Source of the DNA: Alphaproteobacteria bacterium | GTDB lineage: Bacteria > Pseudomonadota > Alphaproteobacteria > CAAGCB01 > CAG-977 | Direction: 5' to 3' | Assembly (NCBI GenBank): GCA_051888155.1 | Contig: JBJFAY010000098.1 | Coordinates: 1-63,612 of the forward strand | DNA: 63,612 nt | Shown here: in pieces, positions 8,939-63,612 of the stretch | Numbering within the stretch: position 1 is the first letter of the stretch | Layout of the letters: every line of letters starts with the position of its first letter | Made by a program: the position numbers and the translations under genes | Notes under the pieces: model-generated | Seen by the model: only the letters and a program-made list of their open reading frames with translations | The model's database searches: none | Told to the model about the DNA's origin: nothing

Positions 8939-9901
8939 CTATAATAAGTTTAATAAGTACCCGGTTATAATAAAGGCAGTCATCAGATATCCGATAAATA
9001 TACCCAGCAGCCTGTACGTAAATACTTTTTTCAACATCATCATTTCAGGCAAAGAAATCGCAGCAATACTCATAAAAGCGGCCAAAGCCGTTCCGATCGG
9101 GACTCCCTTCATTAACAGAACTTGGATTAAGGGAACGACGCCGGCTTGTGAAGCATAAAGCGGAATACCCGCAATCACTGCGGACGGGACGGCCCAAATA
9201 TTGTCAGCGCCCATATACTTGACAAAAAGTTCTTGCGGAATATAACCGTGAATAAAAGCGCCGATCGCAAGACCGACTACAATATAAAGAAATAAAGATC
9301 TTACCGTATTAATGGCAAAATTGTTTGCATATTTAATTAAAGCCGCCGTTTTTTCTTTTATATTTTTGCAATTACACATCTGAGGAATAGCCGGAATAAT
9401 TTTAAGAATCAAATAACGTTCCATATTAAATTTATCCGCTAAATATCCGGCTAAAACTGAAATGATTGTTCCGGATATAATATAAACGGACACAATATAA
9501 ATACCGTATTTTCCCATAGACAGCAGCATAAAAGCCGCAATTTCACTGATCAAAGGAGAACTGACCAAAAACGCCGTACTTACACCGAAAGGAACGCCGG
9601 CCGCTAAAAACCCCATAAATAAAGGGATTGACGAACAAGAACAAAACGGCGTAACAGCTCCGAGGAACACGGCGAAGAAATAGCCGCCTCTGCGAGATTT
9701 CCCGGATAAACAATTTCTGACTTTTTCAGGATTTAATTGTGAACGGAATAAAGAAACAAAAAAGATTAACACATAAAGCAAAACAAAAATTTTGCTACAG
9801 TCTTCAATAAAGAAATGAACTGCCTGCCCGAAATGAGTATCCGGAGATATTCTCATTCGAGCAACAGACCAATCTGCAAGTTTTGTAAAAATTGCTAACA
9901 C
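8939..9901 (-). CDS. ArsP/DUF318-type permease
   Basis: Polytopic membrane protein with Cys clusters (FCSCSSIPLF, CNCK). Overlaps the arsR-like stop. Confidence 0.7.
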   Translation of the reverse strand: MLAIFTKLADWSVARMRISPDTHFGQAVHFFIEDCSKIFVLLYVLIFFVSLFRSQLNPEKVRNCLSGKSRRGGYFFAVFLGAVTPFCSCSSIPLFMGFLAAGVPFGVSTAFLVSSPLISEIAAFMLLSMGKYGIYIVSVYIISGTIISVLAGYLADKFNMERYLILKIIPAIPQMCNCKNIKEKTAALIKYANNFAINTVRSLFLYIVVGLAIGAFIHGYIPQELFVKYMGADNIWAVPSAVIAGIPLYASQAGVVPLIQVLLMKGVPIGTALAAFMSIAAISLPEMMMLKKVFTYRLLGIFIGYLMTAFIITGYLLNLL

Positions 9902-54704: not shown

Positions 54705-55075
54705 GCGATTCACAACGAATCGACAAATGGCTTTACTTTACACGTTTTGCGAAAACCCGCGCGGCGGCGCAGGAAATGATCGCCGGCGGGCATGTGGCCG
54801 TTAATGATGAAAAAGTCCTGAAAGCCAGCCGGGAAATAAAAACGGGCGATGAATTGAATATTCTGCGCAGTTCCGTTCGGTTTTTCGTGCGCGTGACGGG
54901 ATTTGCCGAAAAAAGAGTCGGCGCTCCCGTCGCCCGGACATTATATGAACAGCTGCGCGATCCGGAAAATTTGGCTCCGCCGCCGAAAAAAGCGTTTGAA
55001 TTCCGCGTAGCCGGATCAGGCCGTCCGACTAAACGTGACAGACGGGCGATCAACCGACTGAAAGGGAAATTTTAG
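54701..55075 (+). CDS. hslR: S4-domain RNA-binding protein (Hsp15/HslR-like)
   Basis: RIDKWLYFTRFAKTRAAAQEMIAGGHVAVN S4 motif. ATGA overlap with the helicase gene. Confidence 0.75.
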   Translation: MSDSQRIDKWLYFTRFAKTRAAAQEMIAGGHVAVNDEKVLKASREIKTGDELNILRSSVRFFVRVTGFAEKRVGAPVARTLYEQLRDPENLAPPPKKAFEFRVAGSGRPTKRDRRAINRLKGKF

Positions 55076-56216
55076 CTTTCATTAATGACTTTTTTGTCGT
55101 TGAAATAATTTTGTTTTTCCACAAAACAACGTCTTTTATCGCCAGCTTTTGTTGCGCCGTGATGAATGATTCCATAAAATGATAGTCAATGCTTTTATCG
55201 TCTATAACAGGAAGCCATAGGAGATCTTTTTTTATTTTTTCTTTTGAAATTGAATCTCCCCATGAATATTTATCATGAAGGCTTTTATATAGAGCCGACA
55301 CTAAAAATAAGAAATGTTTATATGTTTTATTTATTTCTATTTTTAATGATAACGATAAATTGTGACTGTCGTTTGAAAAATAATTTTTTTCTTGATATGT
55401 GATAACCATTGACTTCCCTGCAATCATAATGGAATTTCCTTTTTCTAAAAAAGATTTATCATACGAAATATATGTAAGAATAGAATTGTTTGTTTCTCCG
55501 GCTGTTACATAAGGATAATTTCCACTATTCGGTACAATTTGATTTTTTAAGATACTATGAGTGTTTTTAACTGAAAAAATTCCATTTTCACCTGTTATTT
55601 TAAATTCTTTAAACCGGATTTTTCCGTTTTTAAAATCGTCCAGCGCTGTTTGTTCGGCAGCTGTTAAATCGTAATCTTCCAATCCGGCGGCGCGCAGGTA
55701 TGTTGCAAGCTCGCTGACGCACGCTTGTTCAAGCTCGCAAATATAGTGTTCCATATAATCGAAAGCGAGGGATTTATTTAAAGTTGGTAAAATGATTTCA
55801 TGTTTGGCCAATTCGTTTAGCTTATATCCACTCTGTTGGCCATTATATTTAGAAATAAATTTTTGAATATGAGTTACTAAATAAAGAGCAATAAATCTGT
55901 TAATTTCAAAATTAGGTTTTAATACGTTGATGTTTTGAGAACAATAATATTCGCTTTCTTGAAATTTGGCATATTTGTAGTTTCCTATGACAGTCGCTGT
56001 AATTGTATTTTTTTCATTCGGATTAAAATCTTGAAGAGAAATTTTTCCTTTAATCCCGTTATTATCATCAACTCTTCCAACAAAGTTAATCCCCTTTTCA
56101 GTAAAAGTTAGTTTGCCTTCATCTAGAGATTTACTTCCTTTAATCTGGAATAATTGTGCATGTTCCAGTGTGTATTTTTCCCATTTGCCCCCGTTGGATT
56201 CAAATTCTTTTTTCAA
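55050..56216 (-). CDS. Restriction-modification specificity subunit with two target-recognition domains (HsdS/BcgIB-like)
   Basis: Two similarly sized variable halves are separated by a helical spacer (YICELEQACVSELATYLRAAGLEDYDLTAAEQ) and followed by a C-terminal helical region. It lies 17 nt downstream of the methylase gene. Confidence 0.7.
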   Translation of the reverse strand: MKKEFESNGGKWEKYTLEHAQLFQIKGSKSLDEGKLTFTEKGINFVGRVDDNNGIKGKISLQDFNPNEKNTITATVIGNYKYAKFQESEYYCSQNINVLKPNFEINRFIALYLVTHIQKFISKYNGQQSGYKLNELAKHEIILPTLNKSLAFDYMEHYICELEQACVSELATYLRAAGLEDYDLTAAEQTALDDFKNGKIRFKEFKITGENGIFSVKNTHSILKNQIVPNSGNYPYVTAGETNNSILTYISYDKSFLEKGNSIMIAGKSMVITYQEKNYFSNDSHNLSLSLKIEINKTYKHFLFLVSALYKSLHDKYSWGDSISKEKIKKDLLWLPVIDDKSIDYHFMESFITAQQKLAIKDVVLWKNKIISTTKKSLMKAKISLSVG

Positions 56217-56233
56217 CTGTTCCAGACGAGGGC

Positions 56234-58243
56234 TTACAGAAAATTTTCAGGTGTTCCTTCTTCTTTTAAAATTGTTGACACTTTCCACGCCAGATAATCT
56301 GCGACTGTTTTCCTAAAATCGGATTCGGTCGGAATCGTGTCCACCTGTTTGTGCTGCGCGTATGTCCAATCGTCGCCGTTCAGGGAAATCGTGTCCTCTA
56401 TCACGCAATCGTCAAAATAATGTGTCGCCCTTTTGCGGTTTAAAACGATGTCGGCGACTTCGCGATAGCGGCCGGCGGCGTCGCCCGTGTTTTTTAAATT
56501 AACGTCCGCACTTGATTTTTTGCGGTTTTGGCGTGTATAGCCGTCGTTTGAAAAATCAATGCATTTCACCAGATTGTCCGCGCCGTGCGGAACGCCGACG
56601 TCGAAAACGTAAATTGCCGTCTGCACGCCCGCTTTACCGCAAAAGATGTCGCTCATGTGAATCGCGGCAACCAGCGTGTTGCGTTTCAATATTTCCTTTG
56701 TGTAGGGCAAACCGTTGCCGCTGCCGGCGTTTTCCTGAATCAAAATCGCGGCGCGTCCGCCCGACATGCGGCTTAACGCGCGTTCAACGAAAACAAACCC
56801 TTTTCCTTTGGCGGAATAGGGCGGATTTAAAAGGAACACATCGGCGGGAAACGGCGTGTCTTTTTGCGTTCCCTGTTCGTAATTGCCGTTAAATTCGGTC
56901 AGGGAATCCTTGTGCAGAATGTTGCACGACCCGTCCCCCATCAAAATCATGTTCAAAACCGCCAACATATAAATGTCGGCGCGCAATTCAACGCCAAGCA
57001 GCTGAAAATACTTGATGTGTGCGATTTTTTCGGCGCGTTCCCGCGGGCTGGTGATCGTTTTTTCCGCGTCGTCAATCATTTGCTTCATTGCGGAAATCAA
57101 AAATCCCGCGCTGCCCGTCGCATAGTCCCAAACATAGCTGTCCTTGTTGACTTTGCACAGTTTCGCCATAAATTCGCAGACATAGCGCGGGGTCAGCACG
57201 ACGTCGTTTTTATCGCCGTCCGGAATATCCACCCATTCGTTCAACACATTGAACAATCTGCCCGTAAAATCCAAATGCCGCGCGGACGTGAAAATCGGCA
57301 TGATGTCGTTTTTAATGACGGTGTAAACGGTTTTTATCGCGCTTTCGCCATTTTTAGGCTTGTAAATCTGCGAATAAATGAACACTTGCGACAAATCGGA
57401 AACGATCAGTTCCCGTTTTTCCTTGGGCAGATTCTTTTCGTTTAAAAAGTCGGCTATTTTGTTGACGACGATCTTTCCGTCGTTTGAATTTTCCCCCGTG
57501 TCGCCCTTTAAATCCGTTATTTCCAACGGGGAAACCCTGCCGTCGACGCCCAAAGCCGCCATAATCAGCCCCGCCACCAGCTGAACGCGCGATCCGACGG
57601 ATATTTTCAATTCGTCGTGCATTTTTTGGTTTAACGCTTTCAGCTTGATTTCGATCTGATTTTCATAATCTTTGGCTTTCGCTTCTTTTTCCTCTTCGGT
57701 TAAAGAAAGCGCGTCGATTTTCTGAACGAAGCTTTCAAAGTTTTCCGGATACAGAAAACTTAAATCGCTGTAATCGCCGACTTTTTTCGGAATACAAAAA
57801 TTGTTCGCCGAAACGTAATAAACGCCCAGTTCCGTTTTGATTTCGCCCGCGTCTTCGTACCCGTTCACGCCGACGGCGACGGATTCCTTGTACGACATTG
57901 TGTTTTTCACAATCGCGTCGGCGTAATGAACCGCCCCGTTCACCGCGTATTTTTGAATGTTGGACGGTTTTGAATTGTCGATTTCTCCGTTCGGCGCGGT
58001 TTTGATCAAAGATCCCTTAGTTCCTTTGACTTCAATCATCACGGGGATTTTGCGGTTGGTCTTCGTCGTCAGAAACAATTTGATGTCGGGATAGTTGTTT
58101 CCTTTTCCGCCGCTTTTGGACGGGGCGTTTTTCAACGCGTCGTCAATTTCGGCGTTAATATTTTCGGTTTTGGTAAACGTCCGGCATTTTTTCAGCTGTT
58201 CCTTGGCAATGTTTTCGATTTTTTCTTCGATACTGGGCATCAA
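56234..58243 (-). CDS. BcgIA-like bifunctional restriction endonuclease / N6-adenine DNA methyltransferase (type IIB candidate)
   Basis: N-terminal PD...(E)xK-like motif (YPDIKLF...IEVKG), methyltransferase motif I (DYATGSAGFL) and motif IV (NPPY). Confidence 0.65.
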   Translation of the reverse strand: MMPSIEEKIENIAKEQLKKCRTFTKTENINAEIDDALKNAPSKSGGKGNNYPDIKLFLTTKTNRKIPVMIEVKGTKGSLIKTAPNGEIDNSKPSNIQKYAVNGAVHYADAIVKNTMSYKESVAVGVNGYEDAGEIKTELGVYYVSANNFCIPKKVGDYSDLSFLYPENFESFVQKIDALSLTEEEKEAKAKDYENQIEIKLKALNQKMHDELKISVGSRVQLVAGLIMAALGVDGRVSPLEITDLKGDTGENSNDGKIVVNKIADFLNEKNLPKEKRELIVSDLSQVFIYSQIYKPKNGESAIKTVYTVIKNDIMPIFTSARHLDFTGRLFNVLNEWVDIPDGDKNDVVLTPRYVCEFMAKLCKVNKDSYVWDYATGSAGFLISAMKQMIDDAEKTITSPRERAEKIAHIKYFQLLGVELRADIYMLAVLNMILMGDGSCNILHKDSLTEFNGNYEQGTQKDTPFPADVFLLNPPYSAKGKGFVFVERALSRMSGGRAAILIQENAGSGNGLPYTKEILKRNTLVAAIHMSDIFCGKAGVQTAIYVFDVGVPHGADNLVKCIDFSNDGYTRQNRKKSSADVNLKNTGDAAGRYREVADIVLNRKRATHYFDDCVIEDTISLNGDDWTYAQHKQVDTIPTESDFRKTVADYLAWKVSTILKEEGTPENFL

Positions 58244-61299: not shown

Positions 61300-61980
61300 T
61301 TAAAACCCGCCGGCACTGACGGCGGCGACCAGGCCGGAGGATTTTTCCGTTTCTTCCCGTTTTTCCGTATCGTTTTCGGAAGCGTCAAGATAGTTTCGCT
61401 GTTCGGCTTCATAGTTGTTTTCATCAAAAGCGTGCGCGGAACACCGGCAGCCGTATTCCGATCCCGGATTACCGCCGGCCGGCGGATCCGACCATTTAAA
61501 GACCTGTCCTTCGCGCGCGGCATGTTCGGGACGGACGCGGTCGTCTTCCTGCGTTTCCCAGACATAATAAACGGTTTTCGTCGGTGTATCGGCGTTTTCT
61601 GACAGTTTTTCAATAACTTGCGCCATAACGGATTGATTTTCCAACAACGCTTCAAAATGGGCTTTCATTTTTTCAACCAAAGCGTCATGTTCTGCGCCGC
61701 GGCCGTATAAGTAGTCGCCGCTGTTCAAAATTTCCCGATATTCCGCCGGGGACAACTGCCGGATTTCATCGGGCGAAAGAAGAATAACGACCTGCCCGGG
61801 ATCCAGAGAGAACAAATTCACCGCCGGATTTTTGGCAAAGATTTCCGTAACGGCCAGATTATTTTCCATTGCAATGGTAAAGACCGTTTCCCCTTGCTTA
61901 ACAACATGATTTTTTTCAATCAGATCCCGGCGCGGATAACGATTTAAAGAAGCTCTGTTTTCAAAAATTTCCTTTTCCAA
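61300..61980 (-). CDS. LysM + phage Mu-F/SPP1-gp7-like (MuF) domain segment; probably the 3' part of one gene with 61961..62524
   Basis: LysM segment (HVVKQGETVFTIAMENNLAVTEIFAKNP) and MuF signature (YVWETQEDDRVRPEHAAREGQVFKW...GCRC). The only start is a TTG without a ribosome-binding site. Confidence 0.6.
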   Translation of the reverse strand: MEKEIFENRASLNRYPRRDLIEKNHVVKQGETVFTIAMENNLAVTEIFAKNPAVNLFSLDPGQVVILLSPDEIRQLSPAEYREILNSGDYLYGRGAEHDALVEKMKAHFEALLENQSVMAQVIEKLSENADTPTKTVYYVWETQEDDRVRPEHAAREGQVFKWSDPPAGGNPGSEYGCRCSAHAFDENNYEAEQRNYLDASENDTEKREETEKSSGLVAAVSAGGF

Positions 61981-62524
61981 AGTTTTTTTTTAAATTGGCG
62001 CCGTATTTGTCGTACAGCTTTATTCCCAGTTGGACGGCATTGGCGTCTTTGTTTCTGTCGGAAAAAGTATCACTGATTGAATGACCTTTGGCCGCGTCAT
62101 GTATTTTTGCTCCCCAGTCTAAAGTTCTATCTTTAAAACCTGACATTCTTCCCGCATATCCGTAATGAATATTTGACCAGATGTCATAATCGTAAATATA
62201 TTTTTTGTCACCGGGCAGATATGTTCCGAAAACCGTCGCCGGCTTTTCCGGATTTACAGAAGATTTTTCCGTTTTGTGATAAAATGAAGTCGCATATTTT
62301 CTGATTGTCGGCTTATGATCCCATTTTCCGCCGGATCTGACTAAAGAAAAAAACTTTGGAAAACCGTAATAAACTGACCTTTCGTTTAAATTTTTAACAT
62401 CTTCATCTTTTTCTCTTAATTTCATTTCGTTATATATACCCGCGGAGATATTTTTATATGGGTCATTTTTCTTATTTAAATTGTCAAAACCTTGACTTTT
62501 CGTTCTTTTATTTGTATCATTCAT
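61961..62524 (-). CDS. WDxK / NxHYGYxG-motif domain resembling the polymorphic-toxin type 44 domain (tentative)
   Basis: GGKWDHKPTIRK...DIWSNIHYGYAGRMSGF. The ORF ends 19 nt after an A9 tract (61983-61991). Confidence 0.4.
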   Translation of the reverse strand: MNDTNKRTKSQGFDNLNKKNDPYKNISAGIYNEMKLREKDEDVKNLNERSVYYGFPKFFSLVRSGGKWDHKPTIRKYATSFYHKTEKSSVNPEKPATVFGTYLPGDKKYIYDYDIWSNIHYGYAGRMSGFKDRTLDWGAKIHDAAKGHSISDTFSDRNKDANAVQLGIKLYDKYGANLKKNFGKGNF

Positions 62525-62557
62525 CGTATTGTCCTTTCAGTGATAAGGGTGTTTTTT

Positions 62558-62842
62558 ATGACAAAAAAAGAATTATTATTAAAAATTTTAAAAATAATAA
62601 TTATTTATTCTTATCTTTCCTCTTTGTGTTGCTTCTATTTGATTGTTTTTATGATAGGATTTGAAGGAGAGCTCTTTACTGTAACTCAATTTTATTTAAT
62701 CTTATATGGTGTTCCTCTATCCGCTTCGATTTGTTTTTGGTTTTATCGCAAAAAAATATGCCGTTATTTATTTTGGTTCATCATGACTCTTTCGTTTCCT
62801 TTCGCTCTGCTGTATTTGTTAGGAGAACTTTCCATTATATAA
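62558..62842 (+). CDS. Small 3-TM membrane protein, array copy 1
   Basis: MTKKELLLKILK..., three hydrophobic helices and a basic loop FYRKKICR. Confidence 0.6.
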   Translation: MTKKELLLKILKIIIIYSYLSSLCCFYLIVFMIGFEGELFTVTQFYLILYGVPLSASICFWFYRKKICRYLFWFIMTLSFPFALLYLLGELSII

Positions 62843-62974
62843 CATAACGTGATTAGATGTGCAAGATAAAAAAGGGGCTGATTTTTTAGCAATAGAGGTA
62901 AAAAATGATAACTTATTGATTTTTAACAGTTTTAATTTATTTTATCTTTCTTGGGAAGAATAGGAGGCGTTTTC

Positions 62975-63259
62975 ATGACAAAAAAAGAATTTCTATTAAG
63001 AATTTTAAAAACAGCTCTTATTGGTTACTATTTTTATGAATTATGCTATTTTTATTTAGCAGTTTTACTGATAGCTACAGGTAATGAAATTATTTCTGTA
63101 TTTCAAACGTGTTTAATCTTATATGGTACTCCTCCTTTTGCTTCGATTTGTTTTTGGTTTTATCGCAAAAAAATATGCCGTTATTTATTTTGGTTCATCA
63201 TGACTCTTTCGTTTCCTTTCGCTCTGCTGTATTTGTTAGGAGAACTTTCCATTATATAA
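62975..63259 (+). CDS. Small 3-TM membrane protein, array copy 2 (divergent N-terminal two-thirds, identical C-terminus)
   Basis: MTKKEFLLRILKTALIGYYF...ASICFWFYRKKICRYLFWFIMTLSFPFALLYLLGELSII. AGGAGG ribosome-binding site. Confidence 0.6.
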   Translation: MTKKEFLLRILKTALIGYYFYELCYFYLAVLLIATGNEIISVFQTCLILYGTPPFASICFWFYRKKICRYLFWFIMTLSFPFALLYLLGELSII

Positions 63260-63390
63260 CATAACGTGATTAGATGTGCAAGATAAAAAAGGGGCTGATT
63301 TTTTAGCAATAGAGGTAAAAAATGATAACTTATTGATTTTTAACAGTTTTAATTTATTTTATCTTTTTTGGGAAGAACGGGGGTATTTTC

Positions 63391-63612
63391 ATGACAAAAA
63401 AAAAGAATTGTTATTAAAAATTTTAAAAATAATAATTATTTATTCTTATCTTTATTCTTCGTGTTGCTTCTATTTGATTGTTTTTATGATAGGATTTGAA
63501 GGGGGGCTCTTTACTGTAACTCAATTTTATTTAATCTTATATGGTGTTCCTCTATCCGCTTCGATTTGTTTTTGGTTTTATCGCAAAAAAATATGCCGTT
63601 ATTTATTTTGGT
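63391..63612 (+). pseudogene. Array copy 3 (close to copy 1), out of frame because A9 replaces A7 after the start codon; cut by the window end
   Basis: ATGAC-A9-GAATTG reads MTKKKNCY*. The downstream sequence matches copy 1 apart from a few substitutions. Confidence 0.55.

Follow-up and report, generated by a model that had tools for sequence, protein, structure and literature searches.

A recombining tandem array of small membrane-protein genes beside a divergent Ntox44-LysM-MuF gene in gut Alphaproteobacteria and its possible role in toxin immunity

What is the function of a tandem array of small membrane-protein genes lying head-to-head with a toxin-like gene and running off the end of a contig? 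The question is raised by contig JBJFAY010000098.1 (GenBank assembly GCA_051888155.1), a stretch of 63,612 nucleotides from an alphaproteobacterium of the CAG-977 lineage, called here the window, whose last part carries the array and, divergent from it, a gene with Ntox44, LysM and MuF domains. A sequence-only reading of this DNA had compared the array with the orphan-immunity or cassette arrays of polymorphic toxin loci. Using the corresponding loci of other assemblies and loci around related toxins (designated by L numbers), we are nearly certain that this is a real, strain-variable tandem gene family. The array proteins are likely to be protective partners of some kind, if immunity and exclusion variants are taken together, and the specific reading that we favour, with reservations, is that they are membrane immunity proteins for an envelope-acting Ntox44 toxin.

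The array is well delimited. Tandem Repeats Finder reports one tandem array at 62553-63612 (period 417, 2.5 copies, score 1454), and a repeat search of the window returned a 215-nt family with three copies at 417 and 418 nt spacing (100/74/97%) together with a 285-nt pair of 95% identity. Two complete 94-codon open reading frames (ORFs) on the plus strand, copy 1 (62558-62842) and copy 2 (62975-63259), are followed by copy 3 (63391-63612, plus strand), which is cut by the contig end (63612) within the repeat; the proposed succession of at least three genes of about 94 codons with a period of about 417 bp is thus recovered. All three copies begin with ATGAC-poly(A)-GAA, with A7 in copies 1 and 2 and A9 in copy 3. 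The units match at 236 of 237 nt between 62724-62960 and 63141-63377 (both plus strand), a block comprising the last 40 codons (inner part of the second transmembrane (TM) helix, cytoplasmic loop and third helix), the stop codon and most of the spacer. Their first 166 nt are identical at 110 positions (66%; 62558-62723 versus 62975-63140), and copy 3 agrees with copy 1 at 202 of 208 positions downstream of the A-run, its A9 (63396-63404) leaving the body out of frame with the ATG. These exact counts support the earlier description of near-identical 3' ends and spacers, strongly differing 5' parts in copies 1 and 2, and a third copy that nearly duplicates the first except for a frame-breaking A9. 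Spacer 1 (62843-62974, 132 nt) has a GGAGG ribosome-binding site ahead of copy 2, and no terminator-like site was found in it; spacer 2 (63260-63390, 131 nt) matches at its 3' end the spacer ahead of the A9 copy in L001. The G+C content of the array is 27%, compared with 47% for the window.

A promoter-like sequence for the array, TTGACT-17-TATCAT (62492-62520, plus strand; 10/12 consensus match), lies within the first codons of the toxin gene and at the same place in L002, although it is a consensus match only and the regional count of such matches is not above that of shuffled sequences. No separate promoter was found in each spacer at the scan threshold, promoter and terminator counts being equal to those of shuffles; therefore, the units are treated, by inference, as one transcription unit. 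An Rfam scan of the array region gave no match. The array would thus be a small operon-like set of tandem paralogues, encoding a lineage-restricted 94-residue inner-membrane protein with three predicted TM helices.

The 94-residue protein resembles no recognised family, in agreement with the sequence-only reading. Neither Pfam nor NCBIfam, PHROGs or PADLOC yielded a family at E <= 0.1, the best match in a profile search of PDB sequences was not significant (E = 0.54), and an exhaustive HMMER scan of 1.84 billion cluster representatives did not detect the family outside its own clade. In the AlphaFold2 (AF2) model (predicted local distance difference test, pLDDT, 70), residues 3-34, 40-64 (broken at 50-52) and 66-93 form three long helices, and the hydropathy profile has three peaks. 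These three membrane-length hydrophobic helices, with positive charges predicted to alternate by side, would be those of an integral membrane protein. A KK/K-rich N-terminus and an RKKICR loop can be read from the sequence and, by the positive-inside rule, suggest a cytoplasmic N-terminus and a periplasmic C-terminus. The ratio of nonsynonymous to synonymous polymorphism (pN/pS) is 0.07-0.08 in codons 1-12 and 47-77, showing purifying selection, and 0.54-0.63 in codons 13-46 and 78-94. Under the predicted topology, entropy is high at TM1 and on the periplasmic side and low on the nearly invariant cytoplasmic side, the positions that vary lying within TM1, within the loop on the periplasmic side and within the outer half of each of TM2 and TM3. 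The low pN/pS of the conserved codons, together with the presence of the genes in about 30 independent assemblies, indicates on sequence grounds that the small ORFs are real genes.

These assemblies, all from human-gut metagenomes, include UMGS1296 ("uncultured Rhodospirillaceae"); a scan of JGI metagenomes for further arrays gave only 3 loci. The synteny is constant, with two glycosyltransferase family 2 (GT2) genes, then the 408-aa gene in opposite orientation and the small genes; beyond these come genes for a 310-aa protein, a response regulator and a trypsin-like protease, and the his genes. The array itself varies between strains, so that the invariance which the sequence-only reading had named as refuting it does not hold. 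There are two copies in about 25 assemblies, three in L048, L057 and L060, and at least three in the window. In L048 the three-copy array is bounded by unique sequence at either end, and its order is that of the window (type A, type B, out-of-frame type A); L060 shows the part with B and the out-of-frame A, and the middle copy of L057 is of type A. The third copy is present in both L057 and L060, whose contigs stop inside or just before the first copy. Since the same genes occur as two-copy and three-copy arrays in independent assemblies, the architecture is real and neither due to chance nor purely an artefact.

The copies can be described by their heads, which are of type A (several alleles) or type B, and their tails, which are "internal" (ending in FPFALLYLLGELSII) or "terminal" (ending in LPFTLFYLWVELFLS and variants). 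Copy 1 of the window combines an A1 head with an internal-type tail, and its exact product is also encoded in L001; copy 2 has a type-B head with an internal-type tail, a combination seen in the window only; and copy 3 has a type-A head. The haplotypes are A2-B(terminal), A2-A3(terminal), A4-B(terminal), A1-A'(truncated), A5-B'-A1-like and, in the window, A1-B(internal)-A'. Type-B heads are thus joined to three different tails (terminal in L002 and others, their own in L048, internal in the window), and the A1 head occupies position 1 in the window and position 3 in L048. The breakpoints between heads and tails coincide with the conserved block, as expected if the blocks serve as recombination substrates, which the sequence-only reading had proposed. 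The "cassette-like diversification" put forward earlier is here ordinary unequal crossing-over or gene conversion and not the work of a dedicated mechanism. The 237-nt shared block would be the substrate for these exchanges, yielding two to three or more copies and new combinations of heads and tails.

The same block complicates the assembly. As it exceeds typical k-mers, "at least three" is the safe count for the window's contig. It is distinctly improbable that this contig alone is a chimera, in which an A-B and an A-A' strain present together were joined by way of the block to give the third copy and the unit with B head and internal tail, the true genome having two copies. Such a chimera would agree with a shared block longer than usual k-mers and reads, with a contig that stops inside the block, with a copy 2 whose exact protein product is on record nowhere else, and with an L001 array consisting of copy 1 and the A9 copy alone. 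However, the A-B-A order of L048 is anchored by its unique flanks, and the partial arrays of L060 (B-A) and L057 (three copies), despite their truncated contigs, also argue against it, as do the 3' end of spacer 1 and the B head of the window, which are alleles not seen in two-copy strains, and the core of the window's copy 3, which is normal whereas that of L001 is truncated.

The distal copy is the least stable element of the array. Copies 1 and 2 have A7 and are in frame at every locus, and the run of the distal copy is A9 in the window, A9 with a deleted GAA in L001, AC-A6 in L048 and L060, A8 in L057, and A7, in frame, in L061, L068 and L069. The distal copy is also shortened to 74 codons in L001, L068 and L069. 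A homopolymer at the 5' end of a coding sequence, with a strain-dependent length that shifts the frame, is a feature of phase-variable genes; nevertheless, because distal copies are also truncated, the simplest reading is decay rather than switching, with a redundant distal copy decaying at a mutable run. In the proposed scheme, such redundant copies would be repeatedly frame-shifted at the poly-A run or truncated. The A9 of the window puts copy 3 in frame with a 38-codon spacer ORF starting at a GTG (63276-63612); L001 is arranged alike, except that the start is an ATG. The Prokaryotic Genome Annotation Pipeline (PGAP) accordingly calls copy 3 as a 112-aa partial protein (ACI4TE_04925) starting at GTG 63276 within the spacer. 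We rejected this spacer-encoded N-terminal extension as a conserved feature: the ORF is closed after 8-11 codons in L008, L014, L048, L049 and L057, and the ribosome-binding site is positioned for the out-of-frame ATG.

The gene facing the array bears out the earlier identification of a divergent toxin-like/MuF neighbour. On the minus strand of the window it is represented by a 5' fragment (61961-62524), a 187-aa ORF matching Ntox44 over profile positions 1-104 of 104 (Pfam, 1.4e-20), and a 3' fragment (61300-61980), a 226-aa ORF matching LysM (9.6e-05) and Phage_Mu_F (3.2e-13) in Pfam and phageSPP1_gp7 in NCBIfam (2.1e-12). In other strains it is a single intact 408-aa ORF, with Ntox44 at the N-terminus (residues about 57-173; 3e-20 in an intact allele), followed by LysM and then MuF, the MuF match covering model positions 32-111 or 51-111 of 112, that is, only the C-terminal part. 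The two fragments are separated by a -2 frameshift at a T9 run (61983-61991; A9 on the coding strand): the alignment shows AAAAAAAGAAAC in intact alleles (L002, L049, L048 and others) and AAAAAAAAAC in the window, a loss of 2 nt that turns A7GAAAC into A9C on the coding strand and leaves the Ntox44 ORF intact yet detached from LysM-MuF. Independent lesions affect two further loci, L015 through the deletion of 17 nt and L056 through a stop at codon 356. The AF2 model of a 98%-identical homologue reaches a pLDDT of about 90 over the Ntox44 domain, and Foldseek searches of the toxin model against PDB and BFVD gave matches only in the LysM and MuF parts, none of known function for Ntox44.

Variation in the toxin gene is limited in extent. 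Within the species, the pairwise difference over the locus is 0.01-0.03, with three peaks that coincide in being far above this background: toxin patch 1 (62339-62404, minus strand, codons 41-62; difference 0.12-0.19, pS 0.44, pN/pS 0.60), toxin patch 2 (62087-62146, minus strand, codons 127-146; 0.11, pN/pS 0.41) and, in the first small gene, the TM1/loop region (0.157). The Ntox44 core (codons 63-126) has a pN/pS of 0.09, and nowhere at the locus does pN/pS exceed 1, so no positive selection was detected. The alleles of patches 1 and 2 occur in all four combinations, and the high pS of the patches (0.26-0.44) suggests old allele classes exchanged by recombination.

The association between the two components is close and recurrent. 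In every contig reaching past the first copy, the Ntox44-LysM-MuF gene lies 33 bp away, head-to-head (62525-62557 in the window, read directly between the start codons at 62524 and 62558), and the family of small genes was found beside this toxin only. Without exception, relatives of the toxin in other gut Alphaproteobacteria (41-51% identity; UBA6411, HGM16787/8, CAG:977 and others) have beside them one to three tandem polytopic membrane-protein genes, which encode proteins of 133, 170/173 or 213-231 aa and vary in composition between strains. The gap between start codons is 28-30 bp in L011 (4970/5001), L012 (4972/5001) and L018 (9951/9980), and a distance of 28-33 bp, shared by lineages with non-homologous membrane proteins, means that each promoter must sit within the opposite gene, so that toxin and membrane-protein transcripts probably overlap at the junction. 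The membrane-protein genes are upstream and divergent in the window, L011, L012 and L016-L018, and co-directional only in the CAG:977 lineage. Of the relatives' membrane-protein families, that of 170/173 aa alone was compared by profile with the 94-aa family, and no homology was found (hhalign probability 0.4%). In L017, a 64-aa hydrophobic ORF (9663-9857) is located between the 170-aa gene and the toxin gene, with a C-terminus similar to that of the 133-aa L016 membrane protein; it looks like a remnant, or a mis-started form, of a third and different cassette, implying that the arrays of these relatives can mix unrelated membrane-protein families.

Membrane proteins also accompany Ntox44 toxins of unrelated type. 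A 136-aa protein follows the PAAR-Ntox44 gene of Achromobacter, proteins of 155/156 aa follow the Ntox44 genes at type VI secretion system (T6SS) loci of Enterobacter and Klebsiella, and one of 150 aa follows a VgrG-linked Ntox44 locus of Treponema, all of them with an N-terminal TM helix. In Streptomyces sp. ADI95-16, the plasmid pADI95-16a (L066, 2390-2701) encodes a 103-aa protein (WP_123082988.1) with three predicted TM helices, whose gene overlaps the stop of the Ntox44 gene; no homology to the 94-aa family was detected (hhalign probability 0.1%). At these unrelated toxins of the T6SS and type VII secretion system (T7SS) type, the immunity position is thus mostly occupied by membrane proteins. 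In addition, the array is kept beside a broken toxin gene in the window, in L056 and probably in L015, whose contig ends at the toxin start, as expected for orphan immunity.

Two of these observations, the LysM (peptidoglycan-binding) domain fused to Ntox44 and the membrane proteins found after other Ntox44 toxins, point to Ntox44 acting at the envelope and to protection in or at the membrane. In the reading that we favour, the array and the divergent gene would form a two-part module, in which the Ntox44 domain would act at the cell envelope and not as a cytoplasmic ribonuclease (RNase), and the 94-aa proteins would be its immunity partners, serving self-protection or exclusion. The variable parts of the membrane proteins (TM1, the periplasmic loop and the outer halves of the other two helices) would carry the specificity on their side, and the two hypervariable patches on that of the toxin. 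The sequences themselves show how the repeats are built, the constraint on the codons, the variation of copies and cassettes by strain, the toxin domains and the linkage across lineages; protection, topology, envelope target and specificity determinants are inferences.

Several points weigh against this reading. The partner genes are divergent and upstream, in contrast to the same-strand, downstream position of classical toxin-immunity pairs. Ntox44 has been labelled a predicted RNase (PMC3482391), which would need a cytoplasmic immunity protein, although the searchable literature holds no experiments on Ntox44, including any in support of that label. The toxin has no signal peptide that would take it into the periplasm of its own cell; the pN/pS of 0.5-0.6 in the variable parts of the small genes is compatible with relaxed constraint; and the co-variation between toxin patches and proximal copy comes from five haplotypes only and could be plain linkage. 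The copy order in the window's contig is uncertain, as the repeat is longer than the k-mer, and at two other Ntox44 loci the neighbour is not a membrane protein, being a GNAT protein in Actinokineospora and a soluble 276-aa protein in Sinorhizobium. As far as sequence can show, the elements of the sequence-only reading hold: the immunity-like role that it suggested gains support from the recurrent adjacency of non-homologous membrane proteins, also at unrelated Ntox44 toxins, and is qualified by the divergent, upstream position of the genes and by pN/pS values not above 1 in the variable regions.

The missing signal peptide could instead suggest that the small membrane proteins act in export or release, in the manner of holins, passing the leaderless LysM toxin across the inner membrane, and their size, their three TM helices and the co-regulation suggested by the tight head-to-head arrangement would suit such a role. 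We consider this very improbable, since the proteins have no charged C-terminal tail and no holin match in PHROGs or Pfam, the relatives already possess a separate holin/endolysin/spanin cassette, and hypervariability, duplication of variants and retention beside a broken toxin would not be expected of an export factor.

A coincidental neighbourhood has the lowest probability of all the alternatives that we weighed. The small genes would then belong to an unrelated, fast-evolving membrane family, such as one of contingency genes or of small membrane toxins controlled by antisense RNA. A family with neither detectable relatives nor known function, and a distal poly-A run that varies by strain (A6, A7, A8, A9), could be accommodated in this way, as could an antisense promoter-like match at the 3' end of each unit. 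This match, TGCACA-18-TATAAT (10/12), occurs on the minus strand at 62834-62863 and 63251-63280, is part of the repeated block and points into the 3' end of each small gene; none is listed for L002, which tells against antisense control. Moreover, 94 aa and three TM helices are outside the size and shape of type I toxins, and chance would hardly account for an adjacency of polytopic membrane proteins that recurs in at least four lineages with non-homologous proteins, nor for the membrane proteins adjoining unrelated Ntox44 toxins.

The main rival, which we nevertheless regard as unlikely, is superinfection exclusion. Here, the Ntox44-LysM-MuF protein would stem from a podovirus-like prophage and serve inside the capsid in ejection or as a pilot, with MuF providing packaging, LysM wall binding and Ntox44 envelope breaching, and the membrane proteins would be prophage exclusion proteins, blocking incoming relatives; in the window's species the prophage would be gone and the module left. 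Mechanistically this is a special case of immunity, directed at phage entry and not at bacterial competition. In L011, L012 and L016-L018 the module indeed follows a reduced T7-like block, where the PHROGs matches of L017 include a portal (phrog_332, 8e-112), a major head protein (2e-80), tail tubular proteins A and B and an endolysin; corresponding ORFs, with holin- and spanin-like small ORFs, are found at the other T7-like loci, and no internal virion proteins are recognisable between tail tubular protein B and the lysis genes in L017. Furthermore, the MuF part of the toxin matches PHROGs for head morphogenesis and for "minor head protein and DNA pilot", and capsid delivery has been proposed for MuF toxins (PMC5576092). 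On the other side, phage genes adjoin the module neither in the window nor in the approximately 30 same-species loci, no relative was found among the viral contigs of IMG/VR, no Ntox44 match was found in the 50,697 phage records of INPHARED, the MuF part alone finding matches there, the MuF model is represented by no more than its last 60-80 positions, and the Ntox44 proteins of T6SS and T7SS loci are clearly interbacterial toxins.

As regards the block itself, the genes of L017 (512-7523) are those for portal, scaffold or protease, major head, tail tubular A and B, holin and endolysin, together with spanin-like ORFs; L011, L012, L016 and L018 are similar in content. The block has no recognisable tail fibre or internal virion proteins, and the Ntox44-LysM-MuF module closes it; it may represent a degraded prophage or else a domesticated particle. 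A more elaborate form of membrane immunity, which we hold to be rather doubtful as a whole, somewhat more so than superinfection exclusion, would combine these elements: an Ntox44 that acts on the envelope and not as an RNase, on a phage-derived LysM-MuF vehicle, an array that gives each strain its own set of intramembrane immunity or exclusion proteins recognising the toxin through TM1 and the periplasmic face, and poly-A slippage that switches the distal cassette, giving the population a variable spectrum of protection.

Two further observations concern other genes of the species. In the window, 55050-58243 is a strain-specific island; one of its genes encodes a type I-like specificity subunit (Methylase_S, 1.4e-26) and another an N6 methylase of 669 aa that weakly matches VRR-NUC. 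The pair fills the slot between a Suv3-like helicase gene and a ferredoxin gene, where other strains have an S4-domain gene and an autotransporter gene. In L002 (4547-5935; also L003-L005, L008 and L009), a 462-aa protein absent from the window matches ubiquitin (1.2e-25), Rad60-SLD (5e-16) and an autotransporter beta-domain (1.6e-34), as would a surface-displayed or secreted ubiquitin-like passenger of eukaryotic type.

Ntox44 is a widespread toxin domain without an experimentally defined activity or an assigned immunity family, and it is enriched in highly transmissible gut strains according to a 2025 preprint. The present locus, with the membrane proteins found after unrelated Ntox44 toxins, leads to a concrete hypothesis that is cheap to address, namely envelope action and protection by small membrane proteins, for which the natural variants of the toxin patches and of the 94-aa heads and tails offer a ready specificity matrix of toxin neutralisation by an intramembrane protein. 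Beyond this, the locus shows that the MuF-toxin architecture occurs in inverted order in gut Alphaproteobacteria. As repeats of this kind break metagenome-assembled genomes, such arrays are systematically under-represented.

In comparison with known systems, the locus resembles in outline the polymorphic toxin loci (Zhang et al., 2012; PMC3482391), with a recognised toxin domain (Ntox44) beside small, fast-evolving tandem partner genes, whose extra cassettes vary by strain and turn over through conserved blocks, and which are kept when the toxin is disrupted. It departs from them in that Ntox44 is N-terminal and not a variable C-terminal tip behind a trafficking region, the variation being limited to two short patches, and in that the partners are encoded upstream in divergent orientation, the nearest start codon 33 bp from that of the toxin gene, instead of downstream on the same strand. 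That survey records no immunity family for Ntox44, and the 94-aa protein belongs to none of its listed Imm families, which include the two-TM Imm-CdiI.

The fusion of a MuF/SPP1-gp7 motif to a toxin domain in human gut bacteria, and the phage structural and lysis genes beside the relatives of the locus, recall the MuF toxins (Jamet et al., 2017; PMC5576092). In contrast to these, which have an N-terminal MuF and a C-terminal toxin and are located in the DNA-packaging module of temperate phages or prophages of Firmicutes, the order here is toxin, LysM and MuF, with only the C-terminal part of the MuF model; glycosyltransferase, response-regulator and his genes lie around the module in the window and in the same-species loci; the toxin gene of the relatives comes after the lysis cassette; and the hosts are Alphaproteobacteria, with no adjacent prophage in the window's species. 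Neither "LysM" nor "transmembrane" occurs in the text of that study.

The predicted three-helix proteins share a general design with the membrane immunity proteins of pore-forming colicins and of membrane-targeting contact-dependent inhibition (CDI) and T6SS effectors, being small polytopic inner-membrane proteins whose specificity would lie in helices and periplasmic loops. Integral-membrane colicin immunity proteins guard against pore-forming colicins. In our case, however, there is no sequence or profile similarity to any of these, and the candidate cognate is an Ntox44 domain and not a pore former. The poly-A run just after the start codon, whose length (A6, A7, A8 or A9) sets the frame of the distal copy, is reminiscent of phase-variable contingency genes, from which the array differs in that only the distal copy varies and some distal copies are truncated. 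With 94 aa and three helices, the proteins also differ from the Ldr/Rdl repeats of type I toxin-antitoxin systems, which encode peptides under about 60 aa with one TM helix and have a conserved antisense RNA. A further counterpart, from an unrelated phylum, is the Streptomyces 103-aa protein (WP_123082988.1), of the same size class and predicted three-helix layout and likewise coupled to an Ntox44 gene, although its own gene is downstream on the same strand, with an overlapping start, in single copy and itself uncharacterised. What is new in relation to all of these is a previously unannotated, clade-restricted family of membrane proteins and, in a recombining tandem array, the first concrete immunity candidate for Ntox44.

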